Source: Bacteroidota bacterium | Lineage (GTDB): Bacteria > Bacteroidota > Ignavibacteria > UBA10030 | Direction: 5' to 3' | Length of the DNA: 64,000 nucleotides | NCBI GenBank assembly: GCA_041695045.1 | Contig: JBGFRR010000128.1 | Location: 16,004 to 80,003 of the forward strand | In this document: positions 20,587 through 52,071 of the stretch, piece by piece | Position numbering within the stretch: the stretch's first letter is position 1 | Layout: each line of letters begins with the position of its first letter | Notes under the pieces: model-generated | Databases searched by the model: none | Told to the model about the DNA's origin: nothing | What the model saw: only the letters and a program-made list of their open reading frames with translations | Program-made: the position numbers and the translations under genes

Positions 20587-20588
20587 GT

Positions 20589-21305
20589 ATGGATTACTTC
20601 TACGTCGACTCGAAGAACATCCACGGCACAACGTTGCTCATTATGGATGATGAGTTCAAGCATCTCGCGCGTGTCCTGCGGAAGAACGTAGGGGAGCACA
20701 TTCGCGTTACCGATGGGAACGACCGCATGTTCACGGCAATCATCCGGTCGTTCGACCATGATGCGGCTGAGTGCGAGATTGTGGAAACGCGAACGCGCGT
20801 CAACGAACCGACGGTCGATATAACGGTTGCGATGTCGTTGCTCAAGAATCCCGGACGGATGGATTTCTTCGTCGAGAAGGCGACCGAGTTTGGCGCACGG
20901 ACGGTCATTCCCCTGCTCTGTGAACGGACGATTCCGCAGCGGGAAAAACACAGCAGGCTCGAAAGCATTGCTCTTGCGGCGATGAAACAATGCGGACGCT
21001 CGTACCGGCCGCGCATCTTTGTGCTCACGCAATTTGAAACGCTCGTGAGAAACTCGGCCGCCTACGACGTGAAGCTCATTCCCCACGAACAAACTGAGCA
21101 ATCGCAGTTTATCGGCACGGTGCTGCGCCACCACCCCTCGGCGCGGTCGGTGCTCATCGTCATCGGACCGGAAGGGGGCTTCACGAACGACGAGCTTGCT
21201 CTCGCTTCGGCAAACGGCTTTGTGCCGATCTCCCTGGGCGCCCGACGTTTGCGCTCGGAATCCGCAGGACTGTACGCGCTCGCATGGCTGGGTGGTGGGT
21301 GGTAG
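20589..21305 (+). CDS. rsmE: 16S rRNA (uracil1498-N3)-methyltransferase
   Basis: RsmE/DUF558 features: N-terminal PUA-like region, VLIVIGPEGGFTNDELALA...ISLGARRLRSE motif. Confidence 0.8.
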   Translation: MDYFYVDSKNIHGTTLLIMDDEFKHLARVLRKNVGEHIRVTDGNDRMFTAIIRSFDHDAAECEIVETRTRVNEPTVDITVAMSLLKNPGRMDFFVEKATEFGARTVIPLLCERTIPQREKHSRLESIALAAMKQCGRSYRPRIFVLTQFETLVRNSAAYDVKLIPHEQTEQSQFIGTVLRHHPSARSVLIVIGPEGGFTNDELALASANGFVPISLGARRLRSESAGLYALAWLGGGW

Positions 21306-21522
21306 GGGCAAGGGGCGGGAGGTCAGCTTGCTCGCCGAAGTGTTTTTTAACGTAGGCGGGAGATCAACCCGTCGTGGCGCTAAGGCGCCCACAGTTGTTC
21401 GGGAGTGCCCCGCTCTAAAAACGAGCGGGACAGGCAACTCCCTCACAACTTTTAGAGTGAGCCTCTGGCTCAAGTCTATGGCTGAGTAATCCCGAGGATA
21501 GACTGAAGAAGAGAAGAAGACT

Positions 21523-22863
21523 ATGAAAATCATCATCGTTGGAGCAGGAGAGGTTGGATTTCATCTTGCGAAGATTCTCTCGCAGGAGAAGCACGACATT
21601 ATCGTCATCGATAGGGATGCAGAACGCATCGGACGCGTCAATGAAGCGCTGGATGTGATGACGGTTGTCGGAAGCGGCAGTCAGCTCAGTTGCTTGGAGC
21701 GCGTGGGAGTGAAGGACGCGGACATGCTGATCGCCGTCACGTCCATCGACGAAGTCAATCTCACCTGTTGCTTATTAGCACACAAGTTGGGGGCGAAGAA
21801 GATCATCGCCCGCGTCAACGACCCGGAGTTTCTTTCCGCCGAAAGCCCGTTGTTCCCCGAAGATTTCGGCATCGACCTCGTGATCTATCCCGAAGGGCTG
21901 GCGGCGCAAGAGATTGTCCGCCTTATCCGTCGTTCTGCCGCAACCGATGTGTTGGAGTTTGCCGAGGGACGCATCCAGCTGATCGGTATCCGCGTGGATG
22001 ACGGCAGTCCTCTCATCAACCGCAAGCTGCGTGATATCGTTGCAGGGTATCGGGAAGTACCGTTCCGCGCTGTTGCGATCCATCGCGGTATTCGCACGAT
22101 CATCCCAACCGGCGACGATGTGTTCCGCAAGGGTGATCAGGCATTTGTAATCTCGAAGGTAGAGCGTGTTCAGGAGATGCTGAGAATCTCGGGGAAGGAC
22201 ACAACGACCTTCGAGCGCGTGATGATCCTCGGCGGCGGACGAATCGGTCAACACGTGGCGGAAGAATTGCAGAGCGAAATGTCCGTCAAGCTCATCGAAT
22301 CCAGCAAAGAAACCTCCCAGCGGCTTGCCGATACGCTCCGCAAGACGATGGTGATCCAGGGGGAAGGGAAGGACCTCGACCTCCTTGCCACCGAGGGCAT
22401 CATGGATATGGATGCCTACATTGCGACGACACGCGACGAAGAAGACAATATTATTTCTTGCCTCATGGCGAAGCATCTCGGCGTGAAGAAGACCGTGGCG
22501 CACGTGGAGCGGCTCGACTACATTCCACTTGCCAATACAATCGGCATCGATGCGCTCGTGAACAAGAAGCTTTCGGCTGCGAACGCGATTCTCAAGTTCA
22601 TCCGGAAGGGCGAGGTCGTTTCGGTGGCCACGCTCCACGGCGTTGAGGCGGAGGTGATCGAAATGGTTGCGCAGCAGGGGTCGGCGGTAACAAAGAAGCC
22701 GTTGCGCGAGCTGAAATTCCCGGAAGGCGCCATCATCGGTTGCGTCATTCATAACGGAAGCGTCACGATACCCATCGGCGCAACGCGCATCAATCCGCAT
22801 GACCGCGTTGTTGTGTTCACACTGCCGAAAGCGATTAAGGAAGTTGAACGGTTCTTCAGCTAA
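21523..22863 (+). CDS. trkA: Trk potassium-uptake system NAD-binding subunit
   Basis: MKIIIVGAGEVGFHLA Rossmann start and duplicated TrkA-N/TrkA-C domain layout. 446 aa. Confidence 0.85.
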   Translation: MKIIIVGAGEVGFHLAKILSQEKHDIIVIDRDAERIGRVNEALDVMTVVGSGSQLSCLERVGVKDADMLIAVTSIDEVNLTCCLLAHKLGAKKIIARVNDPEFLSAESPLFPEDFGIDLVIYPEGLAAQEIVRLIRRSAATDVLEFAEGRIQLIGIRVDDGSPLINRKLRDIVAGYREVPFRAVAIHRGIRTIIPTGDDVFRKGDQAFVISKVERVQEMLRISGKDTTTFERVMILGGGRIGQHVAEELQSEMSVKLIESSKETSQRLADTLRKTMVIQGEGKDLDLLATEGIMDMDAYIATTRDEEDNIISCLMAKHLGVKKTVAHVERLDYIPLANTIGIDALVNKKLSAANAILKFIRKGEVVSVATLHGVEAEVIEMVAQQGSAVTKKPLRELKFPEGAIIGCVIHNGSVTIPIGATRINPHDRVVVFTLPKAIKEVERFFS

Positions 22864-31785: not shown

Positions 31786-32607
31786 ATGAGCTACATTCAG
31801 AAAGCTTTGTACCGTTTGATGCTCACCTTGACACTATCGCCCTCTAATCAGTTGTGGGCACAGGATACATTGTCTATATTCCCCTCTGCAAGGGAGATAA
31901 CTGTTTCGGTTACCGGAGTTGTGGTCAAGATGGGGCAAGAATTTCAATACTCCTATCGTGTACAAAATCATGAAGAGAGTAAGCAAAACATATTTGAGTT
32001 ATACATCCAGCATGATTCGGATGTCTACGATATCTTTGCACCGGATGGTTGGGAGGGGCTTCCGTCAAATGTTGTTAGGAGGGTTGTGATGTGGGGTTCT
32101 AATGACTCAACTTATGACATTTCACCCAAGGGTCAGTTAGGGCGGTTCGCTTTCAAAAGTCTGGGCCTTCCATCGCTTGTACTGTTCTTTGCGCGTGGTG
32201 CCTTCACGATTCCTGTGTTTCCTGAAGGCGAAGCACCGGATTCAATCGCGGGCAGCGACATCTTCGAAAACAGCGCGATTGGGAAAACGATTGGTCCCGT
32301 GCCTCCCCCCTCTCCATTCATCCCCCTCGCCTTCCTCGACACCCTCATCAGCTACACACGCCAAGCTTTTGCCCTGGGCTGGATCAAAAACCGGGACATC
32401 GTGCAAGACTTGAATGCCGAGTTAAACGACGCAAAGCGACAGCTCCGACGCAACAACAAAACAGAGGCAAAGGAAATACTCCGAGACTTTATCGACGAAG
32501 TCAAAGACTTATGGGAAGAAGAAGAGGACCAACGCCGCAAACCACTCACCAGCGAGGCCTATGCGCTGCTCAAGTTTAATGCGGAGTATCTGATCTCGAA
32601 ATTATGA
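31786..32607 (+). CDS. hypothetical secreted protein; acidic coiled-coil-like C-terminus
   Basis: Signal-peptide-like N-terminus MSYIQKALYRLMLTLTLSPSNQLWAQ. No recognisable catalytic motif. Begins 15 nt after the upstream gene's stop. Confidence 0.35.
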   Translation: MSYIQKALYRLMLTLTLSPSNQLWAQDTLSIFPSAREITVSVTGVVVKMGQEFQYSYRVQNHEESKQNIFELYIQHDSDVYDIFAPDGWEGLPSNVVRRVVMWGSNDSTYDISPKGQLGRFAFKSLGLPSLVLFFARGAFTIPVFPEGEAPDSIAGSDIFENSAIGKTIGPVPPPSPFIPLAFLDTLISYTRQAFALGWIKNRDIVQDLNAELNDAKRQLRRNNKTEAKEILRDFIDEVKDLWEEEEDQRRKPLTSEAYALLKFNAEYLISKL

Positions 32608-37955: not shown

Positions 37956-38990
37956 CTAAATCATATACTCGATCACTTTCTTCTTCGGATCGAACGGCTC
38001 AAGTTGGCTGAGTCCAAGCCCATCCATGGCAAGGGTCAGAAGCTCTTTCTCGGAAAGCGAGGTTGTTGTCCCTTTTTTCTCAGCATAAAACTTGCCGGCC
38101 ATGAGGAGCGCTTGCAGCGGTGTAAGACCGACAATCTCGCTGCCGGTTGCGTCGATGCCGAGCGAGCGGGCCTGCTTCTTGACTTCTTCAAATGCGACGT
38201 GGGGCGGTGTGATGTTGAAGTCAACAAGGTTGACCGAAACCTGTGCGATGTTGAATCGCTCCAACAGCACGCCGATGGCCTTCACCGCTTTCAGTGTTCC
38301 GGGAATCTTGACGGTGTTGCCGCGCTCATCCTTTACGGGATTTCCCGCTTCGTCTTTTTGGGGTCGCCCGCTTTCGCGAATCCGCAGGGCAATCTCTTGG
38401 GCCAGCGATGAGTCCGGTGTGTTGAGGTTCACATTGTAAGCGATGAGAAATGTGCGGGCACCGGTAACGGTCGAGCCGGACTTCGCATTGAACTCGGCAG
38501 GACCACAATCGGGTTTCCAGCGTGGATCGCTGAGCTTCTCCGGCAATCCTTCGTATTCACCTTTGCGAATGTTGGCGAGGTTCTTTCGTTCCGGCGTCGT
38601 TGCCGCCGCTTCATAGAGGTAAATGGGGATGCGCAACTCAGAAGCAACGCGCTCGCCAAACTTCCGTGCCAACTGCACACAATCCTCCATCGTCACGCCG
38701 GCGATGGGAACGAAGGGCACAACGTCTGTCGCACCGATCCGCGGGTGCTCGCCTTTGTGTTGCCGCATGTCGATCAGCTCAGAAGCGGTTTGGGTCGCTC
38801 GAAACGCCGCCTCCACAACTGCATCCGGCTCGCCAACGAAGGTCACGACGGTGCGGTTGTAGTCTTTGTCCGGCTCAACATTTAACAGTTTCACGCCGGA
38901 GACCGCGCCGATGCTTGCAGCAATTGCATCGATAATGCTCTGATTCCTTCCTTCACTGAAGTTTGGGACGCATTCAACGATTCGTTGCAT
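37956..38990 (-). CDS. glutamate formimidoyltransferase (FTCD N-terminal-domain homologue)
   Basis: MQRIVECVPNFSEGRNQSIIDAIAASI...EHPRIGATDVVPFVP is the formiminotransferase N-subdomain signature. Start placed at that Met. The listed ORF to 39143 overlaps the upstream gene. Confidence 0.75.
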   Translation of the reverse strand: MQRIVECVPNFSEGRNQSIIDAIAASIGAVSGVKLLNVEPDKDYNRTVVTFVGEPDAVVEAAFRATQTASELIDMRQHKGEHPRIGATDVVPFVPIAGVTMEDCVQLARKFGERVASELRIPIYLYEAAATTPERKNLANIRKGEYEGLPEKLSDPRWKPDCGPAEFNAKSGSTVTGARTFLIAYNVNLNTPDSSLAQEIALRIRESGRPQKDEAGNPVKDERGNTVKIPGTLKAVKAIGVLLERFNIAQVSVNLVDFNITPPHVAFEEVKKQARSLGIDATGSEIVGLTPLQALLMAGKFYAEKKGTTTSLSEKELLTLAMDGLGLSQLEPFDPKKKVIEYMI

Positions 38991-39672
38991 CGTTCTGTAT
39001 GTTTGTCTTGGTGTTCGTAGGGACAGACCGGACGGCTTGCTGAAGCCGGTCGGGCCTAACGGAAGTCTTCGGAATGATGATGGCACCCTGCCTGAAATTT
39101 CCCAACACTTCCGCCTTGCCACGCAAGAACAACCGACCCACAAGCGCGCCGGTGACGGCGTCTAACTCGTCGCCGTTCATCGATGGCTTCAGTCCTTTGA
39201 GGCCCAAACGCTCGAGGCCGTGGCGAAGCCGACCGAGGCCGTCTTGTTTTCGTGCAATGTGCCAAACATCCTGCGCTGCGCCGGGATACATTTCGATGAC
39301 ACGATAGCCCCTCCGACTCAGACGCTTCCGCAGTGCAATACCGCGCACAGTCAGCGAGCGCATGGGGCCCAGCGTGATGGGGAAGAAGCGAATGCCACGC
39401 TCGAACAAGGCGCGGTCACACGGCCGGAAGTGCTCGCCATTGCGGTCGTCAATTGACCTTCGGCCCGGCGGCAAGTGAAGCGGTGCATCGATGGCTACAA
39501 TGTTCGGCGAGTGGCGCGTGATGAAGCTGAGAATCTCTTCATCCGACCTCAGCGTGGCGTACTCGGCGACCGTCATTCCCCGCAGTGCACAGATGCCGGT
39601 GTTGCGTCGCGGGCTGCCGGCGAGGTCGATGCCGACAACGACCGTCGCGTGCCGTTCAGCCTTAGAACTCAA
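38974..39672 (-). CDS. DUF429-like protein (predicted RNase-H-fold)
   Basis: N-terminal VVVGIDLAGSPRRNTGICAL resembles the RuvC/YqgF-like GIDxG start of DUF429 proteins. Start overlaps the hutI stop by about 11 nt; stop overlaps the formiminotransferase start by about 17 nt. Confidence 0.4.
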   Translation of the reverse strand: MSSKAERHATVVVGIDLAGSPRRNTGICALRGMTVAEYATLRSDEEILSFITRHSPNIVAIDAPLHLPPGRRSIDDRNGEHFRPCDRALFERGIRFFPITLGPMRSLTVRGIALRKRLSRRGYRVIEMYPGAAQDVWHIARKQDGLGRLRHGLERLGLKGLKPSMNGDELDAVTGALVGRLFLRGKAEVLGNFRQGAIIIPKTSVRPDRLQQAVRSVPTNTKTNIQNDATNR

Positions 39673-40906
39673 GAATCACTCCCCCCTTGATCACCATCGC
39701 TACGTGATTCATGCCAAAGTGGTAGGCCAAGTAGCGATAATTGGGGATTCGATACAGGATCACATCGGCTTCCTTGCCGGCCTCGACGCTTCCAACACGA
39801 TTTTCCATCTTCAGCGCAGCGGCGGCGTTCAACGTGCATGCGGTCATTGCTTCTTCCGGTGTCATCTTCATCTGTGTGCAGGCGATGGTCATCATCAGCG
39901 GGATGGAGAATGACATGCACGAGCCGGGGTTGAAGTCCGTCGCCAGTGCGACGGGAACGCCGGCTTCGATGAGCTTCCGTGCCGGTGCATACCGATGATT
40001 GAGGAAAAACGAGACCCCCGGCAAGAGGAGAGCGACAACGCCGGCTTCTCTCAGCTTCGGGATCGTTTCCTCGCCGATGTGTTCAAGGTGGTCGGCGGAC
40101 ACGGCCCCGAGTTCTGCGGCAAGCTCAGAGCCGCCGGAGGGGGTCAGCTCTTCGGCGTGGAGCTTGAGCTCGAAGCCGAGTGAGCGTGCCTGCTGAAGGA
40201 TGCGTCTCGAATCGTTGACGGAAAAATAGCCTTGCTCACAGAAGACATCGCAGAATCGCGCAAGTTGGCGCTTGGCAATGTAAGGAAGCATTCTCTCGCA
40301 TACAAGGTCGATGTAGCGGGTTGGGTCGTTCTTGTGCTCGGGCGGGATCACGTGCGCGCCGAGGAACGTTGGTACGACCGTCATGAAATGGTCGTCGGCA
40401 AGCTCGTTGATGGCTTCGAGCATCTTGATTTCGGAGTCGGGGTCTAAGCCGTAGCCTGATTTGATCTCAACGGTCGTCGTTCCGTGCTGCAACATCGCAT
40501 CGAGTCGCCGCGATGCCAACTTCTTCAGCTCCTTTTTTGTCGCAGCGCGTGTTGCCCGAACGGTGGACATGATCCCTCCGCCCTGCTCGGCAATCGCTTG
40601 GTAACTCTTGCCCGCAGTTCGCAATGCAAACTCGTCGTCTCTGCTTCCCGCAAAGACGAGGTGTGTGTGGGCATCGACGAATCCGGGCAGTGCAACATAT
40701 TCTGCGGCATTCACTACGGTTGCGTTTTTATCGAGCGTCCGGTCAAACTCATCCGCCCGTCCCACCCACGCAATGGTCTTGCCCTCAATCAGCACACTCG
40801 CATCCTCAACAATGCCGAGGTCGGCCATGGCTTCGCCTGTCTTGAACCGCGCCCCGTTGGCGCGGACGGTCACAAGTTGCCGGATATGTTCAAGCAGCAG
40901 TTGCAT
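39662..40906 (-). CDS. hutI: imidazolonepropionase
   Basis: LPGFVDAHTHLVFAGSRDDEFALRTAG...SYQAIAEQGGGI amidohydrolase metal site. Start at Met25 of the listed ORF (MQLLLEHIRQLVT). Confidence 0.85.
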   Translation of the reverse strand: MQLLLEHIRQLVTVRANGARFKTGEAMADLGIVEDASVLIEGKTIAWVGRADEFDRTLDKNATVVNAAEYVALPGFVDAHTHLVFAGSRDDEFALRTAGKSYQAIAEQGGGIMSTVRATRAATKKELKKLASRRLDAMLQHGTTTVEIKSGYGLDPDSEIKMLEAINELADDHFMTVVPTFLGAHVIPPEHKNDPTRYIDLVCERMLPYIAKRQLARFCDVFCEQGYFSVNDSRRILQQARSLGFELKLHAEELTPSGGSELAAELGAVSADHLEHIGEETIPKLREAGVVALLLPGVSFFLNHRYAPARKLIEAGVPVALATDFNPGSCMSFSIPLMMTIACTQMKMTPEEAMTACTLNAAAALKMENRVGSVEAGKEADVILYRIPNYRYLAYHFGMNHVAMVIKGGVILEF

Positions 40907-41831
40907 TGGGTGAACGCTTTCTCGCTTCGATGAAAACGTACGCCCCCTTCGAGAGACCCAGAGCCATGACGGCGTCATCCATCTTCCGGAGGAATCGTGC
41001 TGCGCGGTACCGTGCCTCTCCCGAAAGCTTCAGCTTTGCCGCTAAGTAATACCAGAAGGGGAGGAACGTGAATGTTTCAACGATATCGAAGCGCGCCGTG
41101 ATTTCCCGAAGAATCGAGTCTTGGGAAATCTCCTCAAACGGCGACTCGGAATGAAGCGTGTTGCGGTTGGAGTGCTTCAGTGCCGCCCGTTTGGACTCCT
41201 CGGTAGCCAAAAAAGCCCTGAGCCGATGACGCAGTTTCCACTTCTCCCGGTACGGCTGGAACGTTGGAAGGAGAGCATACAGTGCGGCAGCCAACAGCTT
41301 GCGAATGCGTTTCATGCCGATGAAGTCGAGTACCAACAAGCGTCCGTGCGACTTCAGTGTGCGCTCAGCCTGCACCAGGACGTGATCGAGTCGGACGAGA
41401 TGATGTAGAGCATCGTGAGCGACAACGGCATCGTATTGTTGTTCGGGGAGTGTTGAGACGTTCAGGTCGCCAACCTTAAATGTTGGAGAGTGAGGCAACG
41501 GTGTTCTGCCGATTCGTTCGCGAGCGCGGTCGATGCGCTCCGGACTTAGGTCAATGCCGTGGACGTGCAGGCCGCGCTGAGCAAGCTGAAGTGCAAGATG
41601 TCCCTCGCCGCAGCCTAATTCGAGCACAGTAGGGCCGGCGGCAACGATGCGGTCAAGGAAATGACGGAACTCGCGACCGAAGAAGATTTCAAACAGCTGC
41701 AGGTCGTGCCAGAGTTGCGGGTTGAGTGGGTCGGCGTGGACGCTGCCCCAGTGCCGCGCTTCCTGTTGGATGAGTGTCTCGTACGTGCTCACGCGGCCAG
41801 TCGTCGCGGTTCCCAGAGTGCCAGTGTGCAT
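40890..41831 (-). CDS. class I SAM-dependent methyltransferase
   Basis: VLELGCGEGHLALQLAQRGLHVHGIDLSPERI (motif I GxGxG). VLDF motif. Stop overlaps the hutI start; start overlaps the VOC gene's 3' end. Confidence 0.7.
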   Translation of the reverse strand: MHTGTLGTATTGRVSTYETLIQQEARHWGSVHADPLNPQLWHDLQLFEIFFGREFRHFLDRIVAAGPTVLELGCGEGHLALQLAQRGLHVHGIDLSPERIDRARERIGRTPLPHSPTFKVGDLNVSTLPEQQYDAVVAHDALHHLVRLDHVLVQAERTLKSHGRLLVLDFIGMKRIRKLLAAALYALLPTFQPYREKWKLRHRLRAFLATEESKRAALKHSNRNTLHSESPFEEISQDSILREITARFDIVETFTFLPFWYYLAAKLKLSGEARYRAARFLRKMDDAVMALGLSKGAYVFIEARKRSPNATAA

Positions 41832-42151
41832 CCATCCGGCGTGGCAAAGTAGGCAAACCAGCCGAGGTTCGGGATGGCGGTTTTTGGCTGGACGACCTTG
41901 CCGCGGGCTCTTCGAATCTGCTTTAACTTCTCGTCAATACTCACCACCTCGATGTGCACGAAGACGCTCGGTTTCTTCGGGATGGACTTAACTTTGTATA
42001 ACAGGCCGCCGGGTTCGTGTCCGGTTTCGATTATCATCATGTCTTTGTAGCCGACCAGCGGCTCGAACTTCCAGTTGAAGAGCTTTCCGAAAAACGCCTG
42101 GGCTTTGTTGAGGTCGGTGGTAGGAATCTCGATGAACGCGAAGTGATACAT
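41789..42151 (-). CDS. VOC-family (glyoxalase/bleomycin-resistance fold) protein
   Basis: MYHFAFIEIPTTDLNKAQAFFGKLFNWKF...GGLLYKV...HIEVVSIDEKLKQIRRARGKV is the typical betaalphabetabetabeta VOC module. 120 aa from the internal Met of the listed ORF. Confidence 0.6.
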   Translation of the reverse strand: MYHFAFIEIPTTDLNKAQAFFGKLFNWKFEPLVGYKDMMIIETGHEPGGLLYKVKSIPKKPSVFVHIEVVSIDEKLKQIRRARGKVVQPKTAIPNLGWFAYFATPDGCTLALWEPRRLAA

Positions 42152-42218
42152 GGTTGCCCACCTCCGGCGGGTGGCGAGGATGAATGCGTAAGCAAGAAAC
42201 GAAGAATCGCCTAAAGAA

Positions 42219-42410
42219 TCAAGGTTGCAGCGGTGGCGTCGGTTCGTAGCCGGGGCAAGAAAGAACAGGAAGGCGGGGATACTTGACAAATCGCGGGTCG
42301 ACATCGGCAAGCGTGCAACGATAAAACATGCTGCCGCGCGAGGTCGTGATCACCTGAGCGTGACGACAGTTCTCACACAGACCGATGGATGGATTCTGTG
42401 GTGTCGGCAT
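42219..42410 (-). CDS. small Cys-containing protein, possible zinc ribbon (C-x2-C ... C ... C); hypothetical
   Basis: MPTPQNPSIGLCENCRHAQVITTSRGSMFYRCTLADVDPRFVKYPRLPVLSCPGYE, 63 aa. Sits 16 nt after the hutU stop in the same array. Could be non-coding. Confidence 0.25.
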   Translation of the reverse strand: MPTPQNPSIGLCENCRHAQVITTSRGSMFYRCTLADVDPRFVKYPRLPVLSCPGYEPTPPLQP

Positions 42411-42426
42411 GAAGAGTTTTTCCTTC

Positions 42427-44085
42427 TTACAACATCGGAATCGTGATATCCCATCGTCGTGCATTCTCGATGGCGTGTTCATATCCTGCATCTGCGTGGC
42501 GGACGATGCCCATGCCGGGGTCGTACGTCAGTACGCGCTGTACACGCGCCGCAGCTTCTTTCGACCCGTCACACACAACCACCATTCCCGCATGGATCGA
42601 AAGTCCGATACCCACACCGCCGCCGTGGTGCACGCTCACCCAGCTTGCGCCGCCCACGGCGTTGAGAAGGGCGTTGAGGATTGGCCAGTCGGCGATGGCG
42701 TCGCTGCCGTCCTGCATCTGTTCTGTTTCGCGGTTTGGTGAAGCGACGCTCCCGCAGTCGAGATGGTCGCGGCCGATCACGATGGGCGCCTTCAGTTCGC
42801 CGTGCGCGACCATGTCGTTGAAAATCTTCCCCATCGTTGCCCGCTCACCGTACCCGAGCCAACAGATGCGCGCGGGGAGTCCCTGGAATGCGACCTGCTT
42901 TTGCGCCTTCTCAATCCAATTGCAAAGCTGCTTGTTCTCTGGGAAAGTCTCCATCACGGCGCGATCAGTGCGATAAATGTCGTCCGGGTCTCCGGAGAGA
43001 GCGGCCCACCGGAATGGCCCCTTGCCGTCGCAGAACAGCGGACGGATGAATTCGGGTACGAAGCCCGGAATGTCAAACGCGTTCTTCGCACCGTTCGTAT
43101 GCGCCTCGCCGCGGATGTTGTTACCGTAGTCGAACACGACCGCTCCTTTTCGTTGAAGTCGAAGGAGTCCCTTGACGTGCTCAACAATCGATTTCCGTGC
43201 GAGCGTAACGTACTTCTTCGGGTTCTTTGTTCGTAACTCCAACGCTTTTGCGTATGGTAAACCCGCCGGCACGTAGCCGTTCAGTGTATCGTGTGCCGAT
43301 GTTTGGTCGGTGACGACATCGGCAATGAATGTGCCCGCGGCGATGCGCGGGATGATATCGGCGGCATTCGCAAGCAACCCAACGGACAACGGCCGCTTCG
43401 TTTCCGTTGCTTCCTTGATCAGGCGGATGGCCTCGTCGAAGTCATCCGTCATCCGGTCGAGATACCGCGTGGCGAGGCGTTTTTCGATGCGTGAGCGGTC
43501 GACTTCGACGACGAGACACGCTGCGCCGTTCATCGTTGCTGCGAGCGGTTGCGCACCGCCCATCCCGCCGAGTCCTGCTGTGAGCACAAAGCGGCCGCTG
43601 AGATTTCCGCCGAAGTACTTCGCGGCGCAGGCGGCGAATGTTTCGTACGTGCCTTGAAGGATTCCCTGCGTGCCGATGTAGATCCAGCTTCCTGCCGTCA
43701 TTTGTCCGTACATGGTGAGGCCGAGCGCTTCGAGGCGGCGGAATTCGTCCCACGTCGCCCACTGCGGCACGAGCATCGCATTGCTGATGAGCACACGCGG
43801 AGCATCCGGGTATGTTTTGAAAACACCGACCGGTTTTCCGGATTGCACGAGCAGTGTTTCATCGTTTTCCAGGTAGCGCAGACTTCGCACGATGGCCTCA
43901 TAGCATTCCCAGTTGCGCGCTGCCTTGCCGGTGCCTCCGTAGACGATCAGTTCGTTCGGCTTCTCGGCAACGTCAGGGTCGAGGTTGTTCATGAGCATTC
44001 TGAGAGCAGCTTCCTGGAGCCAGCTCTTACAGGATCGTTCCGTGCCGCGTGGTGCGCGGATGATGCGGGTGGGTTTATGAGGCAT
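42427..44085 (-). CDS. hutU: urocanate hydratase
   Basis: 552 aa. [10 protein letters not shown]...[15 protein letters not shown]...[24 protein letters not shown]-binding urocanase motifs. Confidence 0.9.
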
Positions 44086-44323
44086 GAGAACATCTCGCTG
44101 TGGAAATTCGAAATACGAAACTCGAAATACGAAATAAATTCAATGCTTCATTTGCTTCAATGTAGTTTGCACCAACCGATCCCGCAGCACGAATAAGTTG
44201 TTTGCCATACTCGAAGTTCGCGGCGTTGTTCGGAAGCTTTATGACAAACTCTCCCGCCCTCCGGGCAAACGCTTCTGTTCGCTCTTCAAGGTCGTAACGT
44301 TTTGGATTTTGAGAGTTTGACAT
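44075..44323 (-). pseudogene. four-helix-bundle protein (TIGR02436-like) remnant, C-terminally replaced by repeat-derived sequence
   Basis: MSNSQNPKRYDLEERTEAFARRAGEFVIKLPNNAANFEYGKQLIRAAGSVGANYIEANEAL matches the first two-thirds of the family. The remaining 21 codons ([13 protein letters not shown]...) are encoded by the GAAAT/CGTATTTCG repeat block, and the frame ends at the hutU start. Confidence 0.45.
44093..44135. repeat. tandem CGAAATACGAAA-type short repeats
   Basis: ggaaattcGAAATACGAAActcGAAATACGAAAtaaattc. Related to the motifs at 44320-44366 and 45857-45932. Confidence 0.4.
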
Positions 44324-44366
44324 GTTTCGAATTTGTTTAGGATTTCGAAATTCGGATTTCGTGTTT
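44320..44366. repeat. TTTCGAA/CGGATTTCG short-repeat block
   Basis: atgTTTCGAAtttgtttaggATTTCGAAATTCGGATTTCGtgtttattt shares the CGGATTTCG / CGAAAT core with the other two loci. Confidence 0.4.
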
Positions 44367-44841
44367 ATTTGAAAGCGATTGCTGCAATCTCCACAATTGC
44401 TTTCCGTGGGAGATTCGAGACCTCGACGGTCGTCCGTGCGGGATAGCGTCCCTCCGGGAAATATCCGCCGTAGATTAAATTCATCTTCGGGAAGTCGTTG
44501 ATGTCTTTCAGAAACACATTGCATTGCACGACATGGCTCGAGTCGTATCCGGCTTGACGGAGAATGGCCATGAGGTTATCCAACGCCTGTCGGGTTTGGC
44601 TCTCGATGTCGTCTCCCGCTAATTGAACGGTTTCGGGATTCAGCCCGATCTGTCCCGCAACGAAGAGAAAGTTCCCTACCTTCACGGCGGGGCTGTAGGG
44701 TCCGATCACGCGCGCATCGGTAACGAACGTGCGCTCGCCGACGCGGAGCAGTTCCTCCTGAATCATCCTTCGAATGTCCTCATCGCTGTTCCCACACCCG
44801 ACGACAAGCATCGCAATGACAACTGTTACGAGAGCTTTCAT
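44365..44841 (-). CDS. RidA/YjgF-family (reactive-intermediate deaminase) protein carrying an N-terminal lipoprotein signal peptide
   Basis: MKALVTVVIAMLVVGC lipobox, then ...VKVGNFLFVAGQIGLNPETVQLAGDDIESQTRQALDNLMAILRQAG... and C-terminal ...RTTVEVSNLPRKAIVEIAAIAFK RidA signature. Confidence 0.75.
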   Translation of the reverse strand: MKALVTVVIAMLVVGCGNSDEDIRRMIQEELLRVGERTFVTDARVIGPYSPAVKVGNFLFVAGQIGLNPETVQLAGDDIESQTRQALDNLMAILRQAGYDSSHVVQCNVFLKDINDFPKMNLIYGGYFPEGRYPARTTVEVSNLPRKAIVEIAAIAFK

Positions 44842-44860
44842 AATCAGTCCCCTTTCATGA

Positions 44861-45343
44861 CTACAATTTGTACCCTATCGTGCGGAGCAGTTCTTTCCTG
44901 TGTTTGATGTCCTCATCCGTCTCAACGCCCTTGGATTGGAATCCATCTACCACACCGACGATGCCGCGTCCTTGTTCAGTCTCGGCGACGAGCACTTCCG
45001 TCGGATTCGCCGTTGCGCAGTAGATGTGGCAAACCTCCGGCACGTTCTTGATCGCATTCAGGATATTGACCGGGAAACCATTCTCCATAAAGAGAATGAA
45101 ACAATGCCCGCACGCGACTGCGAGGGCGTTCTTTTTGGCAAGGTCAACAAGGTTCTCGTCGTTACCCACCCAGCGAACAAGACATGGGCCGGATGCTTCG
45201 CAAAAGGCAAGGCCAAAGCGCATCTGTGGATTGGTTTGCACCACTGCCTCGTAGATGTCCTCAACCGTTTTGATGAAATGACTCTGGCCGAGGATGAAGT
45301 TCGTCGCTTCGGGTTTTTCAATCTTGACAGCGCTGATGTTCAT
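44861..45343 (-). CDS. PF04008-like ('adenosine-specific kinase' family) protein
   Basis: [34 protein letters not shown]...[11 protein letters not shown] resembles the archaeal/bacterial PF04008 family. Family assignment is from memory of the motif, not a search. Confidence 0.45.
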
Positions 45344-45363
45344 GGTATCTCCTGTACTGGTTG

Positions 45364-45852
45364 TCATGATCCAATGGCGTCGAAGAGATTCACCGGCAGC
45401 AGCCACGTGAGCGTTCCACTGCCGCGTTCAAGTGGTGTTGGCGACTCGATGCATGCAAGGCTTGCCTTTTTTATCTCAATGCGCGCGTTCGTGCTTTGGG
45501 CAACAAGGATGGAAGCCGTCGAGCTGAGGTGTGGCTCGTGGCCGACGAGGAGAACGGTCGTCGGAGGGGAGGAATTCAACAGGGCGAGCACGTTGGCGGG
45601 ATTACTGTCCGGCACGAGTGCTTCCGACACAATCGGTGTTGGCAGGCCAAGGGCTTGCTGGATCGCGCCCGCCATTTGCTGTGCACGCAGCAGTGGGCTT
45701 GTGATGATGCGTTCGATGGCGATGCGTTTTGCCTTGAGGAAGGTTGCTACCTGGTGTGCTTGGGTCAGGCCGAGCGGTGTGAGAGGGCGGTCGCGGTCGT
45801 GGAGAGAAGGATGCTGAACCGCATCACCGTGTCGAAGCAGAACGAGGAGCAT
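45364..45852 (-). CDS. sixA: phosphohistidine phosphatase SixA (histidine-phosphatase superfamily)
   Basis: [11 protein letters not shown] (RHG catalytic motif), [20 protein letters not shown]. Start at the internal Met MLLVLLRHG. Confidence 0.7.
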
Positions 45853-45856
45853 GTTG

Positions 45857-45932
45857 ATTGCGGATTTCGGAATGCGGATTGTGGAATGATTTTTTAATCC
45901 GAAATCCGCAATCTGCAACCCGAAATCGGATC
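45857..45932. repeat. near-perfect 14 nt inverted repeat (attgcggatttcgg ... ccgaaatccgcaat) plus a trailing partial copy, in the RR-sixA spacer
   Basis: The two arms are separated by about 28 nt (aatgcggattgtggaatgattttttaat). ...cccgaaatcggatc follows. Same CGGATTTCG/CGAAATCCG core as at 44.1 and 44.3 kb. Confidence 0.45.
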
Positions 45933-47304
45933 ACGATTTGGTAAGGTTGTATTGCTGAATCTTGGTATAGAGTGTTTTGAGACTAATACCGAGCACTTTT
46001 GCCGCAATACTTTTGTTCCAGTGCAGGTTGTTCAGGACGGCCTGGATATGCGCTTTTTCGACCTCGCGAATCGACACCGAGCTGCCGACCAACGAGCCGC
46101 CGTCGTGATGCTGCTGTTCGAACATCGGTCGGACGCCGAGCGGGAGCGCGAGGTCTTCGGGGCGGATGATATGATCGCGGCAGAGGATTGCGGCTCGTTC
46201 GATGACGTTCTCGAGTTCCCGCACGTTGCCGGGCCAATCGTATTGTGTGAGGATGTCGAGCGCTTTGGGGTCGATGCGCTTTGGTTCGCCCGCGCGGAAG
46301 CGGTTCTTGAGAAAGTAATGAACCAACAGCGGAATATCCTCCTTGCGCTCGCGGAGCGGCGGCAGGCTCAGCGTGATGACATTAAGCCGGTATATCAGAT
46401 CTTCACGGAATCGTCCTTCGGCGACCTCATGCCGCAAGTCCTTGTTGGTTGCCGAGATGATGCGGACGTCGGCTTTCATCGTTTTGTTTGCGCCCACGCG
46501 GCGATATTCGCCCGTCTGCAGGAATCGCAACAATTTCGGCTGCACAACAAGGCTGATCTCGCCGACCTCATCAAGAAAGAGCGTGCCGCCGTGAGCGATC
46601 TCCACCAGACCCGGCTTCGTGGCAACGGCGTCCGTAAACGCACCTTTCTCGTGGCCGAAGAGTTCGCTTTCGATCAGTGTTTCCGGGATCGAGGCGCAAT
46701 TGAGCGCGACGAACGGCTGGTCGTTCCGGAGACTGTTCCGATGAATGAAGTGAGCGATAAGCTCTTTGCCGGTGCCGCTTGCCCCTTGAATCAGAACGGA
46801 GGAGTCGGTTGGCGCAACCTTGGAGCAGAGCTTGAGAACCTCCAGGAACGCCTTACTGCTTCCCACGATGTCGGCGGAGAGTGCGTGGCGCTGGAGTTCA
46901 GTCTTCAGTGCCGCGTTCTCGATCATCAGCCGCTTGCGTTCCAGTGCACGGTCGATCACGGTGAGAATTTCGTCGGCGGAAACCGGCTTGTTCACATAGC
47001 TGTAGGCGCCGAGCTGCATGCACTCGACAGCAAGCTTGATATCGGACACACCGGTTACCATGATCACCGGCATATCCAGAAAATGGTCTTTGATGTATTT
47101 CAGCACTTCAAGACCGTCGACGCGAGGCATCTTCAGGTCAAGGAGCACAAGGTCGAACGATGTCGATTGGAGTTTGTTGATAGCGGCGATACCGTCGGAC
47201 GCGGTGGTGACGCTGTAGTGCTTCTGGCTCAACAAACTCGCGATGATCTCGAGGAAGGTTTCTTCGTCGTCAACAACCAGTATCGAGATCGTCGGGCGGG
47301 ACAT
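45931..47304 (-). CDS. sigma-54-dependent response regulator (REC - AAA+ sigma-54 activator - Fis-type HTH), NtrC family
   Basis: ILVVDDEETFLEII..D REC. GASGTGKELIAHFIHRNS Walker A. GHEKGAFTDAV (GAFTGA). C-terminal HTH. Confidence 0.85.
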   Translation of the reverse strand: MSRPTISILVVDDEETFLEIIASLLSQKHYSVTTASDGIAAINKLQSTSFDLVLLDLKMPRVDGLEVLKYIKDHFLDMPVIMVTGVSDIKLAVECMQLGAYSYVNKPVSADEILTVIDRALERKRLMIENAALKTELQRHALSADIVGSSKAFLEVLKLCSKVAPTDSSVLIQGASGTGKELIAHFIHRNSLRNDQPFVALNCASIPETLIESELFGHEKGAFTDAVATKPGLVEIAHGGTLFLDEVGEISLVVQPKLLRFLQTGEYRRVGANKTMKADVRIISATNKDLRHEVAEGRFREDLIYRLNVITLSLPPLRERKEDIPLLVHYFLKNRFRAGEPKRIDPKALDILTQYDWPGNVRELENVIERAAILCRDHIIRPEDLALPLGVRPMFEQQHHDGGSLVGSSVSIREVEKAHIQAVLNNLHWNKSIAAKVLGISLKTLYTKIQQYNLTKS

Positions 47305-47322
47305 CGTCGGGCGGGTGTTTGC

Positions 47323-48429
47323 TTACTTGACCAGTAGAGCGAAGAAAAAGGTGGTACCTTTTCCGGGTTCGGACTCAACCCAGATTTTTCCGTTATGCGC
47401 TTCGATGATGCGCTGACAGATAATGAGACCCAGGCCGCTTGTTGTCTTGTTGTCTTTTGTCGTCGACACAACATTCCGATAGCGGTCGAAAATGAACGGC
47501 AGTTGCTCCTTGGGAATTCCTTTGCCGGTATTGAACACGGACACAAGCACGAAATCCTGCGGTGGCTGGCCCTCTTCGACGACGAGGGCGACTGTGCGCG
47601 TCTGTGTGGCAATGGCTCCTTCGGCCGGTGTATACTTTAACGCGTTGCTGAGGAAGCTCTGAACGACTTGCTCGATCTTCTGTGCGTCGAATTCGATCGG
47701 TGGTAAATCGGGGTCCGCATGGACTTCAAGGGCTATCCTACTTGATTGCGCCGGAACGCGAAACTCCTGCACAATTTTTCCGACGACATCGGCAATGTTC
47801 CCGATCCCCTTGTTCAGACGAACACGTCCTCCCTCAAGCTTCGTGAGATCCATCATATCGTTGAGGAGGGAGATGACCTTATCGATGGACGTCATCATGT
47901 ACCCCATGAGTTCCTTCTGATGGTCGCCCAACGGTCCGGCCATCCCTTTCATGAGATAACCGATGCTCTGTTTTAACCCGGAGATAGGGTTGTGGAGGTC
48001 GTAGAGCAGTCGCGCAGTGTGTTCAGCCTGAAGCTGGCGGATGCGTTCCTCGGCGTCACGCTTCTTGATGAGGGACCGGAGTTGGGGCACAAGCTGGTCA
48101 AGATCGACAGGCTTGGTGAGGTACTCCTTTGCCCCTAACTTCATTGCCTCCACCGCCATGCTCACGTCGCTCATGCCGGTCATCATCACCACTTCGGTCG
48201 GGTTGGAATTCTTCTTGATGAACCGCAGCACTTCGAGTCCGTTTGCGCCGGGCATCTTGATATCCAGCAAGGCGATGTCGAAATCCTTTCCCTGGACCTT
48301 CTTAATCGCTTCGAGTCCGTCGGCTGCTTGTTCGACCTGAAAACCCTCGTCGCCGAGCCACGCAGCGATGGTGGTTCGCAAGGCTTCTTCGTCGTCGGCA
48401 ATGAGAACGTTGATGGGCTCTTGGTCCAT
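47323..48429 (-). CDS. hybrid histidine kinase lacking a sensor domain (N-terminal REC - HisKA - HATPase_c)
   Basis: MDQEPINVLIADDEEALRTTIAAWL...DIALLDIKMPGANGLEV REC. HTARLLYDLHNPISGL H-box. C-terminal GLGLIICQRIIEAHNGKIWVESEPGKGTTFFF. The listed ORF is extended about 800 nt upstream through hutH on the opposite strand; that extension is rejected. Confidence 0.75.
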   Translation of the reverse strand: MDQEPINVLIADDEEALRTTIAAWLGDEGFQVEQAADGLEAIKKVQGKDFDIALLDIKMPGANGLEVLRFIKKNSNPTEVVMMTGMSDVSMAVEAMKLGAKEYLTKPVDLDQLVPQLRSLIKKRDAEERIRQLQAEHTARLLYDLHNPISGLKQSIGYLMKGMAGPLGDHQKELMGYMMTSIDKVISLLNDMMDLTKLEGGRVRLNKGIGNIADVVGKIVQEFRVPAQSSRIALEVHADPDLPPIEFDAQKIEQVVQSFLSNALKYTPAEGAIATQTRTVALVVEEGQPPQDFVLVSVFNTGKGIPKEQLPFIFDRYRNVVSTTKDNKTTSGLGLIICQRIIEAHNGKIWVESEPGKGTTFFFALLVK

Positions 48430-48636
48430 AGAGCAATACTTTGTGGAGGGTGTGGGCGTTTGCTGAATCTCGAAAACGATGGTGCGATCATGAAGGAAAC
48501 CGGACCGAACAGTGTTACGTGCAAACGCGGGGAAATGATAACGAGATTCGCCCGAAAAGTCAATGCGCATGCGTGCAATTCTGTTGAATTTCTTCACTTG
48601 CTCTGCTACATTAGTGTATATTCTTACCTCCTTACT

Positions 48637-50253
48637 ATGGCTCACTACGCACTCGACGGTAACTCCCTTACTCTCGAATTGCTTCAGCATGTTGTCTATC
48701 ATGGCACGCCGATTGCACTTTCTCCGCAGGCACAGCGTCGGCTGCGCGCTTCGCGTCGGCTTGTGGAGCGTTGGGTTCACACCGGCGAGACGGTCTACGG
48801 TGTGACCACAGGATTTGGAGAATTCAGTAACGTTCGCATCAGCACACGCGATAATGAAAAACTTCAGGAAAACCTGATCCGAAGCCATGCGGCAGGCGCA
48901 GGCGAGCCGCTGCCTCCGGAGGTTGTCCGTGCAATGATGGTGCTGCGTGTGAACGCCCTTGCGAAGGGCTATTCCGGCGTACGAACGGAAACGGTTCAAC
49001 AACTGGTGAAGATGGTGAATGCCGGTGTCGTTCCCGTGATTCCGTCGCAGGGTTCTGTGGGAGCCAGTGGCGACCTTGTGCAGCTCGCGCATCTCGTGCT
49101 GTCGATGATGGGGAAGGGAAGAGTGTGGGAGTGGGATGGTAGCAGAGGGGCGAGGGAGCAAAGGGGGTGGGGAGATGGGGAGGTGGGAAGCATGAAAACA
49201 GTGAGTGCGTCGGCGGCATTGAAGAAGCATCGGTTGAAGTCGGTACGGCTAACGGCGAAGGAAGGCATCGCGTTAATCAACGGCACGCAGATGATGACGG
49301 CGTACGTTGCTCTCACCGTCTGGCATGCAAAACGGCTCCTGCGTCTTGCCGACATCGCCGCCGGGCTGAGTGTGGAGGCCTTGCGTGGAAGCGACACGCC
49401 GTTCGACGAGCGCATCCACAACCTTCGCCCGTATGCAGGACAGAAAGCCGTGGCAAAGAACCTGCGCCGGCTGATGGAGGGAAGCGAGATTCGAGAATCC
49501 CACCGCTACAATGACCCGCGTGTGCAGGATGCGTACTCGCTGCGATGCGTTCCACAGGTGCACGGTGCTTCGAGAGACGTCGTTGCCTACGTGGAGCATC
49601 TCCTCGCCATCGAGATGAACGCGGCGACCGACAACCCGCTCATCATCCCTGCCCTGACAGGTCGGGGCGTTCATCTTGAGGGGGGCAACTTCCACGGCCA
49701 GCCGATGGCGTTCGCGGCAGACTTTCTTGCCATCGCACTTTCTGAGGTGGCGAACATCTCCGAACGTCGCATCGAACGTCTCGTGAATGGATCCCTGAGC
49801 GGCTTGCCGCGGTTCCTGACGGCAAACGGTGGGTTGAATTCCGGGCTGATGATTGCCCAATACACTGCTGCCTCGATTGTATCGGAAAACAAAGTCCTGT
49901 CGCATCCTGCGAGTGTGGATTCGATTCCCACGTCCGCCAATCAGGAGGATCACAACAGCATGGGCTCGATTGGCGCGCAGAAGGCCTGGCGCGTGCTGCA
50001 GAACGTGCAGCGGGTGATTGCCATTGAACTGCTCTGTGCCGCGCAGGCGTTGGATTTTACCCGCACGATGAACAGCAAGCAACCGATGAAAGCGGGCCGC
50101 GGAACGGAAATCGCCTATCACTTTCTTCGAAAGTACATCAAGCACCTGAATGAGGACCGTGTCCTCCATCCCGATATCCAGACCGCGCTGCGGCTCGTGT
50201 TGGACAACAGCCTTCTACAGGCTGTCGAGCGCGCGATCGACAAGCTTGAGTAG
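48637..50253 (+). CDS. hutH: histidine ammonia-lyase
   Basis: MAHYALDGNSLTLELL... and GSVGASGDLVQLAH (Ala-Ser-Gly MIO-forming triad). About 538 aa. Contains an in-frame G-rich insertion (see findings). Confidence 0.85.
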   Translation: MAHYALDGNSLTLELLQHVVYHGTPIALSPQAQRRLRASRRLVERWVHTGETVYGVTTGFGEFSNVRISTRDNEKLQENLIRSHAAGAGEPLPPEVVRAMMVLRVNALAKGYSGVRTETVQQLVKMVNAGVVPVIPSQGSVGASGDLVQLAHLVLSMMGKGRVWEWDGSRGAREQRGWGDGEVGSMKTVSASAALKKHRLKSVRLTAKEGIALINGTQMMTAYVALTVWHAKRLLRLADIAAGLSVEALRGSDTPFDERIHNLRPYAGQKAVAKNLRRLMEGSEIRESHRYNDPRVQDAYSLRCVPQVHGASRDVVAYVEHLLAIEMNAATDNPLIIPALTGRGVHLEGGNFHGQPMAFAADFLAIALSEVANISERRIERLVNGSLSGLPRFLTANGGLNSGLMIAQYTAASIVSENKVLSHPASVDSIPTSANQEDHNSMGSIGAQKAWRVLQNVQRVIAIELLCAAQALDFTRTMNSKQPMKAGRGTEIAYHFLRKYIKHLNEDRVLHPDIQTALRLVLDNSLLQAVERAIDKLE

Positions 50254-50328
50254 CGCCGACGAAGTTTACTCGTTGCTCTCTGACATCTTCCATGTGCTAT
50301 TCCTCGAATTGATTCCAGAAAGGATTCT

Positions 50329-51441
50329 ATGAAGTTCAAAAAAGAATTCCTCCGGTCTCTTCCGAAAGTTCTCTTGCATGATCATCTGGACGGCGGCGTT
50401 CGTCCGGCAACGGTGGTCGAGTTAGCGAAGGAACATCGCTACACCAAACTCCCCACCACCGACCACGGCAAGCTGGCGGAGTGGTTTCACCGCGGCGCAA
50501 CGCGGGGAAGCTTACCGCTGTTTCTTGAGGGGTTCGAGCACACCTGCGGCGTCATGCAAACCGAGGATGCCCTCGAACGCGTCGCTTACGAGATGATGGA
50601 AGACATGAACAACGATGGTGTCGTCTATGTGGAGACGCGCTTTGCGCCGGTGTTTCATACGTCGAAGGGACTGCATCTCGAGACGGTCATCAAGTCGGTG
50701 TTGAAAGGGCTTGAACGTGGCCGGAACGACTTCGGCGTTGAATACGGGCTGATCCTGTGTGCGATGCGACATATGAAGCCTGCCGTTTCACAGGAGATTG
50801 CCGAACTGGCGGTCGATTTTCGAGACCATGGCGTCGTCGGCTTCGACCTTGCCGGTGAGGAGGGAGGCTATCCGCCGAAGAAGCATGTGGATGCCTTTCA
50901 TTACATCCAGCGGGAGAACTTCAACATCACCATTCACGCGGGCGAGGCGTTCGGAAAGGAATCGATCTGGCAGGCCATCCAGTGGTGCGGCGCGCATCGC
51001 ATCGGCCATGCAACGCGACTCGTTGAGGACATGAAAATCAAGAATGGGGAAGTGCTCAACATGGGCTTGCTTGCCCAGTACGTGTTAGATAAGCGCATCC
51101 CGCTCGAGGTGTGCATCACGAGCAACGTTCATACAGGAGCGGTGAAGAGTGTTGAGGAGCATCCGTTTGAAATTTTCCACCGCTACAAGTTTCGCGTTAC
51201 CCTCAACACGGACGACCGGCTCATGAGCAAGATCACGCTCACCGATGAGTATGCGACCGCGGCGGAGGTGTTCAAGCTCTCGCTCAACGACCTTGAGAAA
51301 CTCACCATCAACGCCATGAAGAGTGCGTTTATCCCCTATAAAAAACGAATCAGAATCATTTACGATGTGCTGAAGCCCGGGTTTGCCAAAGCCCGGGAAC
51401 AACTCGAACACAGGCGCGGAGAACATCGCGTCAGGAGGTAA
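50329..51441 (+). CDS. add: adenosine deaminase
   Basis: LPKVLLHDHLDGGVRPATVVELA and ...ITIHAGEAFG...HRIGHATRL metal-site motifs of the ADA family. Confidence 0.8.
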   Translation: MKFKKEFLRSLPKVLLHDHLDGGVRPATVVELAKEHRYTKLPTTDHGKLAEWFHRGATRGSLPLFLEGFEHTCGVMQTEDALERVAYEMMEDMNNDGVVYVETRFAPVFHTSKGLHLETVIKSVLKGLERGRNDFGVEYGLILCAMRHMKPAVSQEIAELAVDFRDHGVVGFDLAGEEGGYPPKKHVDAFHYIQRENFNITIHAGEAFGKESIWQAIQWCGAHRIGHATRLVEDMKIKNGEVLNMGLLAQYVLDKRIPLEVCITSNVHTGAVKSVEEHPFEIFHRYKFRVTLNTDDRLMSKITLTDEYATAAEVFKLSLNDLEKLTINAMKSAFIPYKKRIRIIYDVLKPGFAKAREQLEHRRGEHRVRR

Positions 51442-51444
51442 ACC

Positions 51445-52071
51445 ATGCATCATCAACACATTCATTGGTTAGGGCATGCAACGTTCCGGATTGAGGACGG
51501 CGCCAAGCAGATCTATATCGACCCATGGAAGCTCCCACCCGATTCCCCCAAAGCGGACGTCATCCTCATCACCCATGCGCATTACGATCATTTCTCGCAG
51601 GAAGACATCGCCAAAGTTCGCAAGGAGAGCACGGTGTTTTTCGCCCCGAAGGACGTCGCGTATCAAATCGATGCAAACGTCATCGTCACCTCGCCAAACC
51701 AGATCTATACGGTCGGTGAGTTGAAGGTAAAAACCATCCATGCCTACAACATCGGCAAGCAATATCATCCGAAGCAGAACAACTGGGTCGGTTACGTGCT
51801 GACGCTCTCGACCGAACAAAAAATTTACCACGCCGGCGATACCGACTTCACGTCGGAGATGCGAACGGTGGTAACGGATTTTGCGCTCCTGCCGTGCGGC
51901 GGAACCTACACGATGACGGCGAAGGAAGCGGCGGAAGCAGCGAACGTCTTCAAGCCGCGGGTAGTGATTCCGATGCACTGGGGTGACATCGTCGGTACGC
52001 AAGCGGATGCTGAAGAAGTGAAAAAGCTTTTCAAAGGAGAGACCCTCATCAAACAGCCTGAGCGGTCGTGA
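51445..52071 (+). CDS. MBL-fold metallo-hydrolase
   Basis: ILITHAHYDHF (HxHxDH), then H and D ligands. 208 aa. Confidence 0.7.
   Translation: MHHQHIHWLGHATFRIEDGAKQIYIDPWKLPPDSPKADVILITHAHYDHFSQEDIAKVRKESTVFFAPKDVAYQIDANVIVTSPNQIYTVGELKVKTIHAYNIGKQYHPKQNNWVGYVLTLSTEQKIYHAGDTDFTSEMRTVVTDFALLPCGGTYTMTAKEAAEAANVFKPRVVIPMHWGDIVGTQADAEEVKKLFKGETLIKQPERS

Follow-up and report, generated by a model that had tools for sequence, protein, structure and literature searches.

A G-rich polypurine tract in a hutH gene of the Ignavibacteria: probable by-product of loop evolution at a permissive β-hairpin tip

Histidine ammonia-lyases (HALs) have a Ser-His pair that acts as a selectivity switch, the Glu of an NQEDH motif, and a catalytic Tyr in the inner loop. 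In the enzyme of Pseudomonas putida (PpHAL) we take the corresponding residues to be Y53, H83 and E414, the counterparts of Y54, H84 and E437 in the protein described here. It is also known that lineage-specific low-complexity inserts sit in exposed loops, and that their codons are homogeneous when the insert is young.

The P. putida enzyme (1B8F/1GKM; TIGR01225) and the protein described here are homologous over their full length. Common to both are the Ala-Ser-Gly triad that forms MIO, the Tyr of TxYGxxTGFG, the Ser-His of SHAAG and the NQEDH motif. The predicted fold of our protein (pTM 0.87) and the presence of Hut genes near its own gene are further points of likeness. The difference lies between the MIO Ser and the AKEG motif, where the spacing is 45 residues in P. 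putida and 64 in our protein, in which the β-hairpin that follows the post-MIO helix has 19 extra residues, predicted to be disordered.

These residues are encoded by an unusual G-rich tract, which has much in common with the low-complexity indel hotspots found in loops of conserved enzymes. It lies at the tip of a hairpin; it is hydrophilic and composed of Gly, Arg, Glu, Asp and Ser; it is modelled with low confidence; its length varies even among close relatives; and its codon usage is biased and away from equilibrium. It differs from them in that it has no clear tandem-repeat structure, and a simple slippage origin is not demonstrated. The tract would also be counted as a potential G-quadruplex (G4) by the sequence criteria applied to bacterial genomes (PMC6539912), but its G-runs show no conservation at synonymous sites when the closest relative is compared.

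The DNA analysed (the window) is 64 kb long. The hutH gene lies on the plus strand at 48637..50253, starting from the ATG at 48637 (MAHYALDGNSLT...), and encodes 538 amino acids followed by a stop codon. The protein matches PF00221 (Pfam) with an E-value of 1.9e-194, and belongs to the hutH equivalog family TIGR01225 (NCBIfam), with a score of 663.7 bits over residues 6-535 against a cutoff of 539.15. Its best match in the PDB is the HAL 6v6h (E 1.3e-132), and 1gkm is also among the best solved relatives. The MIO-forming triad Ala143-Ser144-Gly145 (GCC AGT GGC; 49063..49071, plus strand) aligns to the GASGDL of the solved HALs, and S144 and G145 are invariant in an alignment of 36 relatives. 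The same is true of K208, E209 and G210 in the AKEG motif (A207-K208-E209-G210; 49255..49266, plus strand), which is the conserved anchor on the 3' side of the loop. The residues typical of a HAL are present, namely Y54 (in TVYGVTTGFG), S83-H84 (in LIRSHAAG) and E437 (in SANQEDH), and all of them align with their counterparts in 1gkm. In many relatives (P0007, P0008, P0015, P0018, P0044 and others) the triad is Ser-Ser-Gly rather than Ala-Ser-Gly, within the sequence SVGSSGDL.

Three further Hut genes, all on the minus strand, have their near ends 4.5-10.7 kb upstream of hutH. They encode urocanase (hutU, 42430-44085), a hutI-like amidohydrolase (39665-40978) and a formiminotransferase (37959-39143), and they therefore place hutH in the context of a working pathway. 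Judged by its sequence, the gene that bears the tract is otherwise ordinary, and probably encodes a functional HutH.

The remaining neighbours are a sigma-54 activator (45934-47304, minus strand), a hybrid response-regulator/histidine-kinase (RR-HK; 47326-48432, minus strand), which is divergent from hutH, an adenosine deaminase (Ada; 50329-51441) after hutH, and an MBL-fold protein (51445-52071) after Ada. Within positions 37959-52071 of the window, the Hut genes are thus not all together but split. The order RR/HK, hutH, Ada, MBL is kept in two relatives (L003 and L084), while L002 has the hutH-Ada-MBL part only. A minus-strand open reading frame of 635 residues (47323-49230) spans the tract, and is a trap for ORF callers, since the real gene (RR-HK) begins near 48432. 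The frame stays open because the C/T-rich antisense of a polypurine tract has no stop codons.

The tract itself occupies 49105..49195 on the plus strand, is 91 nt long and in frame in hutH, and reads ATGATGGGGAAGGGAAGAGTGTGGGAGTGGGATGGTAGCAGAGGGGCGAGGGAGCAAAGGGGGTGGGGAGATGGGGAGGTGGGAAGCATGA. Purines make up 83.5% of it and G alone 57%; there are 4 C and 11 T, and 10 runs of at least three G. It contains the most purine-rich 85-nt stretch in the 64 kb (0.847, against a mean of 0.51 with sd 0.066, so that it stands about 5 sd out), the most G-rich (0.60) and the highest 25-nt G4Hunter peak (2.64, at 49163). A preliminary description of this DNA had drawn attention to a G-rich purine tract in frame in hutH, and these maxima bear it out. 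That description is right to call the tract purine-rich, but slightly overstates the case with 'almost pure'; the peptide that it read, WEWDGSRGAREQRGWGDGEVG, is identical to residues 164-184 as found here.

The composition of the tract was compared with what its peptide requires. The 29 residues of the tract were recoded in 20000 simulations, with synonymous codons drawn by the codon usage of the window. The recoded sequences have a purine content of 0.70 +/- 0.03, and none of the 20000 reaches the observed 0.84 (z 5.2); their G4Hunter peak is 1.76 +/- 0.28, against the observed 2.64 (P 0.005). As the recodings fall short of the observed purine content, the peptide alone is not sufficient to explain the composition. 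The bias can be seen in the individual codons. All four Arg codons in the tract are AGA or AGG (AGR), a form taken by 1 of the 39 Arg codons elsewhere in the gene; none of the Gly codons is GGC, the Gly codon preferred by the genome; and the third position is a purine in 24 of the 29 codons, compared with 48% elsewhere. By codon rarity, the tract ranks at the 10.6th percentile among windows of 29 codons. This is not an extreme value, and a pause caused by a cluster of rare codons is rejected on this basis.

Counted from Ser144 to the Ala that precedes KEG, the spacing in the query is 64 residues, compared with 45 in 22 of the 76 relatives measured (species-representative loci from the genome collection). 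Alignment with the solved HALs 6v6h and 1gkm leaves 17-19 residues of the query unmatched. A figure of 19 additional residues is therefore correct, which agrees with the earlier reading of an in-frame low-complexity insertion of about this size just past the post-MIO helix.

In order to place these residues in the fold, we used an AlphaFold2 model, built with 36 relatives (mean pLDDT 80, with the pTM given above), and assigned its secondary structure with DSSP. It predicts a helix (residues 145-157; 49069..49107) running from the MIO to a hairpin, whose first arm is a β-strand at residues 162-165 (RVWE; 49120..49131) and whose second arm is a β-strand at residues 187-190 (KTVS; 49195..49206), all on the plus strand. 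The V-W/Y/F pattern of the first strand is conserved in relatives. Between the arms, residues 168-185 (GSRGAREQRGWGDGEVGS; 49138..49191, plus strand) form the extra low-complexity tip, which is predicted to be disordered (pLDDT <50) and is gapped against the solved HALs and most relatives. The model thus suggests that the extra residues extend the tip of a surface β-hairpin and are probably floppy. The 13-residue helix begins at the MIO, and the topology of the chain would put the loop at the opposite end of this helix.

In HALs of the Ignavibacteria/Bacteroidota type, this hairpin tip is a hotspot of indels. The sample used here consists of 120 protein matches and 76 measured loci (about 200 in all) from Ignavibacteria, Kryptonia and 'Bacteroidota' MAGs. 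Within it, the spacing from Ser to AKEG takes nearly every value from 45 to 66, and also 75, and the canonical value of 45 is common in the query's own clade. The query's spacing of 64 is near the long end, yet it is not unique: P0009 shares the spacing but not the sequence, which is unrelated, and longer spacings occur in P0049 and P0058 (65), L016 (66) and L057 (75). The types of insert are unrelated to each other, and include Lys/Glu-rich sequences (KGINEKSKVWEKRKGRSEKGE), Phe/Asn-rich sequences with internal repeats (L016 and L039) and an insert of +30 (L057). A rough neighbour-joining tree, constructed with the loop masked, shows that close sisters differ in loop length; in one tight clade, for instance, it goes from 18 through 25 to 31 residues. 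The preliminary description had assumed a short conserved linker at this position, whereas what is found is a β-hairpin with a tip that, within the clade, is hypervariable both in length (spacing 45-75) and in sequence. The stepwise growth from 18 to 25 to 31 is listed with P0037, P0032 and P0049. The unrelated hairpin inserts in the loop region of L016 and L039 have an internally repetitive look (DSRFKFHGSKFE... and ISNFQFPISNFE...).

A search of 5.8 billion proteins found an identical protein in an NCBI assembly, and a 94%-identical protein, also of 538 residues, on an independent JGI metagenome contig. This relative (L001; JGI 3300045482) has 92.4% DNA identity to the query across the gene, and its loop matches that of the query in length and frame and differs by 9 point substitutions across 28 codons. 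In L001 the gap from hutH to the next called gene is 361 nt (1655-2016), compared with 76 nt in the window, pointing to either a rearrangement at this site or another gene downstream. The next relatives, L002 and L003, are at 74-75% identity. Their loop is 4 residues shorter, with a similar G/R/E-rich make-up, and the fragments ...GS-RGA-REQ... in the query and ...SG-RGA-DGE... in L002/L003 indicate that the two inserts are apparently homologous. Synonymous sites between the query and L002/L003 are saturated (pS 0.74), so that if the inserts are indeed homologous the insertion is old. It had been suggested earlier that the insertion might be recent, and that this could be checked by looking for the same length in homologues; L001 has that same length, and with the shorter version in L002/L003 the suggestion can be set aside. 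The synonymous purine bias is likewise shared by the loops of L001 (z 4.1), L002 (3.2) and L003 (3.6); it is weaker in L085 and L086, and absent from the loops of L084 and L088.

On the basis of these observations, we consider it likely that the tract is a lineage-specific, hydrophilic, low-complexity extension of the permissive HutH hairpin tip, and that its composition and G4 potential are by-products of the evolution of the loop. The loop would be selected mainly for hydrophilicity and flexibility, and extra residues at the hairpin tip would be tolerated because they are disordered. Selection of this kind would lead to fast turnover among residues with purine-purine-N codons, that is Lys (AAR), Glu (GAR), Gly (GGN), Arg (AGR), Asp (GAY), Asn (AAY) and Ser (AGY). 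New Arg residues would be AGR rather than CGN because each would come from a Lys or Gly codon in one step, and would not yet have shifted to the CGN preferred by the genome. Finally, A-to-G pressure in a gene of 59% GC would make the tract rich in G (GGG, GAG, AGG, TGG). We infer this mechanism of codon turnover from the counts, all of which it fits.

Several comparisons among relatives bear on this proposal. Between L002 and L003, dN is 0.29 in the loop and 0.04 in the rest of the gene, so that the loop changes 7x faster than the rest of the protein, with an omega of 0.6; the replacements are mostly within purine-rich codons, as in AGG to GGG, GAG to AAG and GAC to GGG. In L001, two of the AGR codons are now CGR. 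Across 60 loops, which are not phylogenetically independent, G/(A+G) in the loop correlates with the GC content of the gene (Spearman 0.70, p 4e-10): relatives of low GC have Lys-rich loops, and GC-rich relatives have loops rich in Gly, Arg and Glu. As the bias occurs in two mutually saturated lineages, the 'youth' of the codons can account for it only if turnover goes on; such turnover is inferred, not directly observed.

An alternative is that the inserted peptide is itself functional, as a flexible arm rich in Trp, Arg, Gly and Glu that serves a lineage-specific protein-protein contact, tetramer packing or regulation. We regard this as unlikely, though it has the comparison with L001 in its favour. 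There, 3 of the changes in the 28-codon loop are non-synonymous and 6 are synonymous; a binomial test against neutrality gives P 0.003 for the loop and P 0.03 for the insert proper (residues 166-186), and dN/dS, at about 0.10-0.15, resembles that of the remaining gene. Both Trp residues are kept, as are most of the Gly and Arg. In the short term, therefore, the peptide is not free to drift. This is weak evidence of constraint, as the rate is estimated from nine substitutions only, and it is contradicted by the L002/L003 pair, in which the loop runs so far ahead of the rest of the protein. At longer distances neither the sequence nor the length of the loop is conserved, relatives with the canonical spacing are common in the same clade, and the segment is predicted to be disordered.

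The G4 potential of the tract raises a different possibility, namely that it is a functional nucleic-acid element kept by selection. The element would be a G4, in the non-template DNA or the mRNA, or else an SD-like or rare-codon pause, and would modulate transcription or translation of hutH, or co-translational folding after the MIO segment. The strongest potential G4 core identified by PQS regex (GGGG-N3-GGG-N6-GGGGG-N1-GGGG-N4-GGGG-N4-GGG) is at 49147..49187 on the plus strand, where G4Hunter gives its 2.64, and the tract holds six overlapping PQS starts with loops of up to 7 nt. The MFE structure from ViennaRNA with its gquad option contains a 4-tier G4 at 49147-49187 and a 3-tier G4 at 49111-49135, and the fold energy of the 91-mer is -31 vs -2 kcal/mol. 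On sequence criteria, the tract is thus the strong G4 candidate that it was first taken to be. Also in favour of such an element, in the query, L001, L002 and L003, G4Hunter reaches its maximum for the gene in the loop; the synonymous purine bias (z 3-5) occurs in two deeply diverged lineages; and there are GGAGG motifs in the tract.

The synonymous sites nevertheless argue against it. Their rate is not lowered in the loop, where dS is 0.43-0.48, compared with 0.25 in the rest of the gene. Moreover, 5 of the 9 substitutions in L001 take a G or a purine out of a run. The codon changes AGA to CGA, AGG to CGG, GGG to GGA, GGA to GCT and GGA to GAA interrupt runs of purine or G, and the G4Hunter peak of L001 is 1.96, compared with 2.64 in the query. 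No PQS was found in L084, L086, L004, L085, L087 or L088, nor, with loops of up to 7 nt, in L002; most relatives are without a PQS, and L084, L088 and most other relatives lack any G-rich loop. When the peptide is recoded at random with synonymous codons, 45% of the sequences have a G4 in their MFE structure, and the total folding energy of the tract is not unusual. Conservation of the G-runs beyond coding need is thus not seen. The rarity of the codons is unremarkable, as noted above, and no Rfam family matches anywhere in the 64-kb window, for which reason a structured RNA is also rejected. We therefore consider a nucleic-acid element very improbable. A broader form of the idea, in which polypurine G-run coding is kept by nucleic-acid-level selection in at least two deeply diverged lineages, as an intragenic G4 or pause that tunes hutH expression or co-translational folding, seems to us about as improbable; if true, it would explain why the synonymous purine bias has outlasted saturated synonymous divergence. 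The G4 potential of the tract, strong as it is in silico, is most likely incidental.

It is worth adding that G4 potential in the window as a whole is ordinary, with a PQS density of 0.84 per kb beside a bacterial mean of 1.34 per kb (PMC6539912). When overlapping hits are merged, the tract scores 1.45 with G4Hunter over 101 nt, and is the longest merged PQS in the window. The same survey reports 86 PQS scoring at least 2.0 in 5.9 Gbp. A comparison of the tract with that class was rejected as unfair, because the survey scores merged regions.

The tract had also been called a slippage hot-spot. The sole repeat found is a weak tandem repeat, TGGGGAGA x2.5 (49168..49187, plus strand; TRF score 33), and the longest homopolymer is G5. 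Alignment of one half of the tract against the other gives no more similarity than shuffled sequence (P 0.30), and the loops of the query and L001 are equal in length, in a comparison of only two close genomes. Two pattern scans of metagenomes for further close strains returned none; run locally, the first of the patterns does hit both the window and L001. An exact look-up of the query protein gave no recorded contig. We conclude that the description of the tract as a slippage hot-spot is not borne out. Origin by duplication or from a mobile element is rejected: beyond the shuffle-level similarity of the halves, no direct or inverted repeats were found flanking the tract, and no second copy was found in the 64-kb window, either at up to 3 mismatches or by blastn-short.

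There remains the reading of the tract as an assembly or sequencing artefact, or as foreign or mobile DNA inserted very recently. It appeals to a composition sharply unlike the rest of the gene and to a G5 run of a kind that is error-prone on some sequencing platforms, but is hardly credible and effectively already refuted. The independent contig L001, from a different source, carries the tract at the same length and in the same frame with its 9 point differences, so that the misassembly raised in the preliminary description is excluded. In addition, the frame is unbroken and the conserved motifs downstream are preserved, flanking repeats and a second copy in the window were not found, and L002 and L003 have shorter versions that are apparently homologous.

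The feature is thus real and conspicuous but ordinary, a lineage-specific expansion of a permissive HutH hairpin tip that did not arise recently and is not a fault of the assembly. A conspicuous G-rich tract in the gene of a conserved enzyme can be explained by ordinary loop evolution, and is of little import for biology at large. The analysis maps the hairpin as a place where HAL/MIO enzymes tolerate insertions, which may be of some use for enzyme engineering or tagging. The tract also provides a clean example of how AGR-coded Arg and purine-biased synonymous codons mark a hydrophilic loop with fast turnover, with G-richness following genomic GC.

Elsewhere in the window, the G- or C-rich spots (at 6920, 7892, 20529, 21283, 27907, 32294, 34830 and others) consist of ordinary coding sequence, with no polypurine insert comparable to this one, and a genome-wide habit of such tracts is rejected on these grounds. 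Two of the spots may be described further. The most pyrimidine-rich stretch of the window, at 32294-32346, is C-rich (G4Hunter -2.16) and encodes GPVPPPSPFIPL. It is found in an open reading frame on the plus strand (31786-32607) that also contains the rarest-codon cluster of the window, and this combination suggests that the ORF call or its frame may be wrong. The second-strongest PQS of the window (peak 2.16), at 21283-21330, is G-rich on the plus strand; it lies antisense within a putative minus-strand ORF (20583-21536), which at this point reads SRPLPLPPTTQP.
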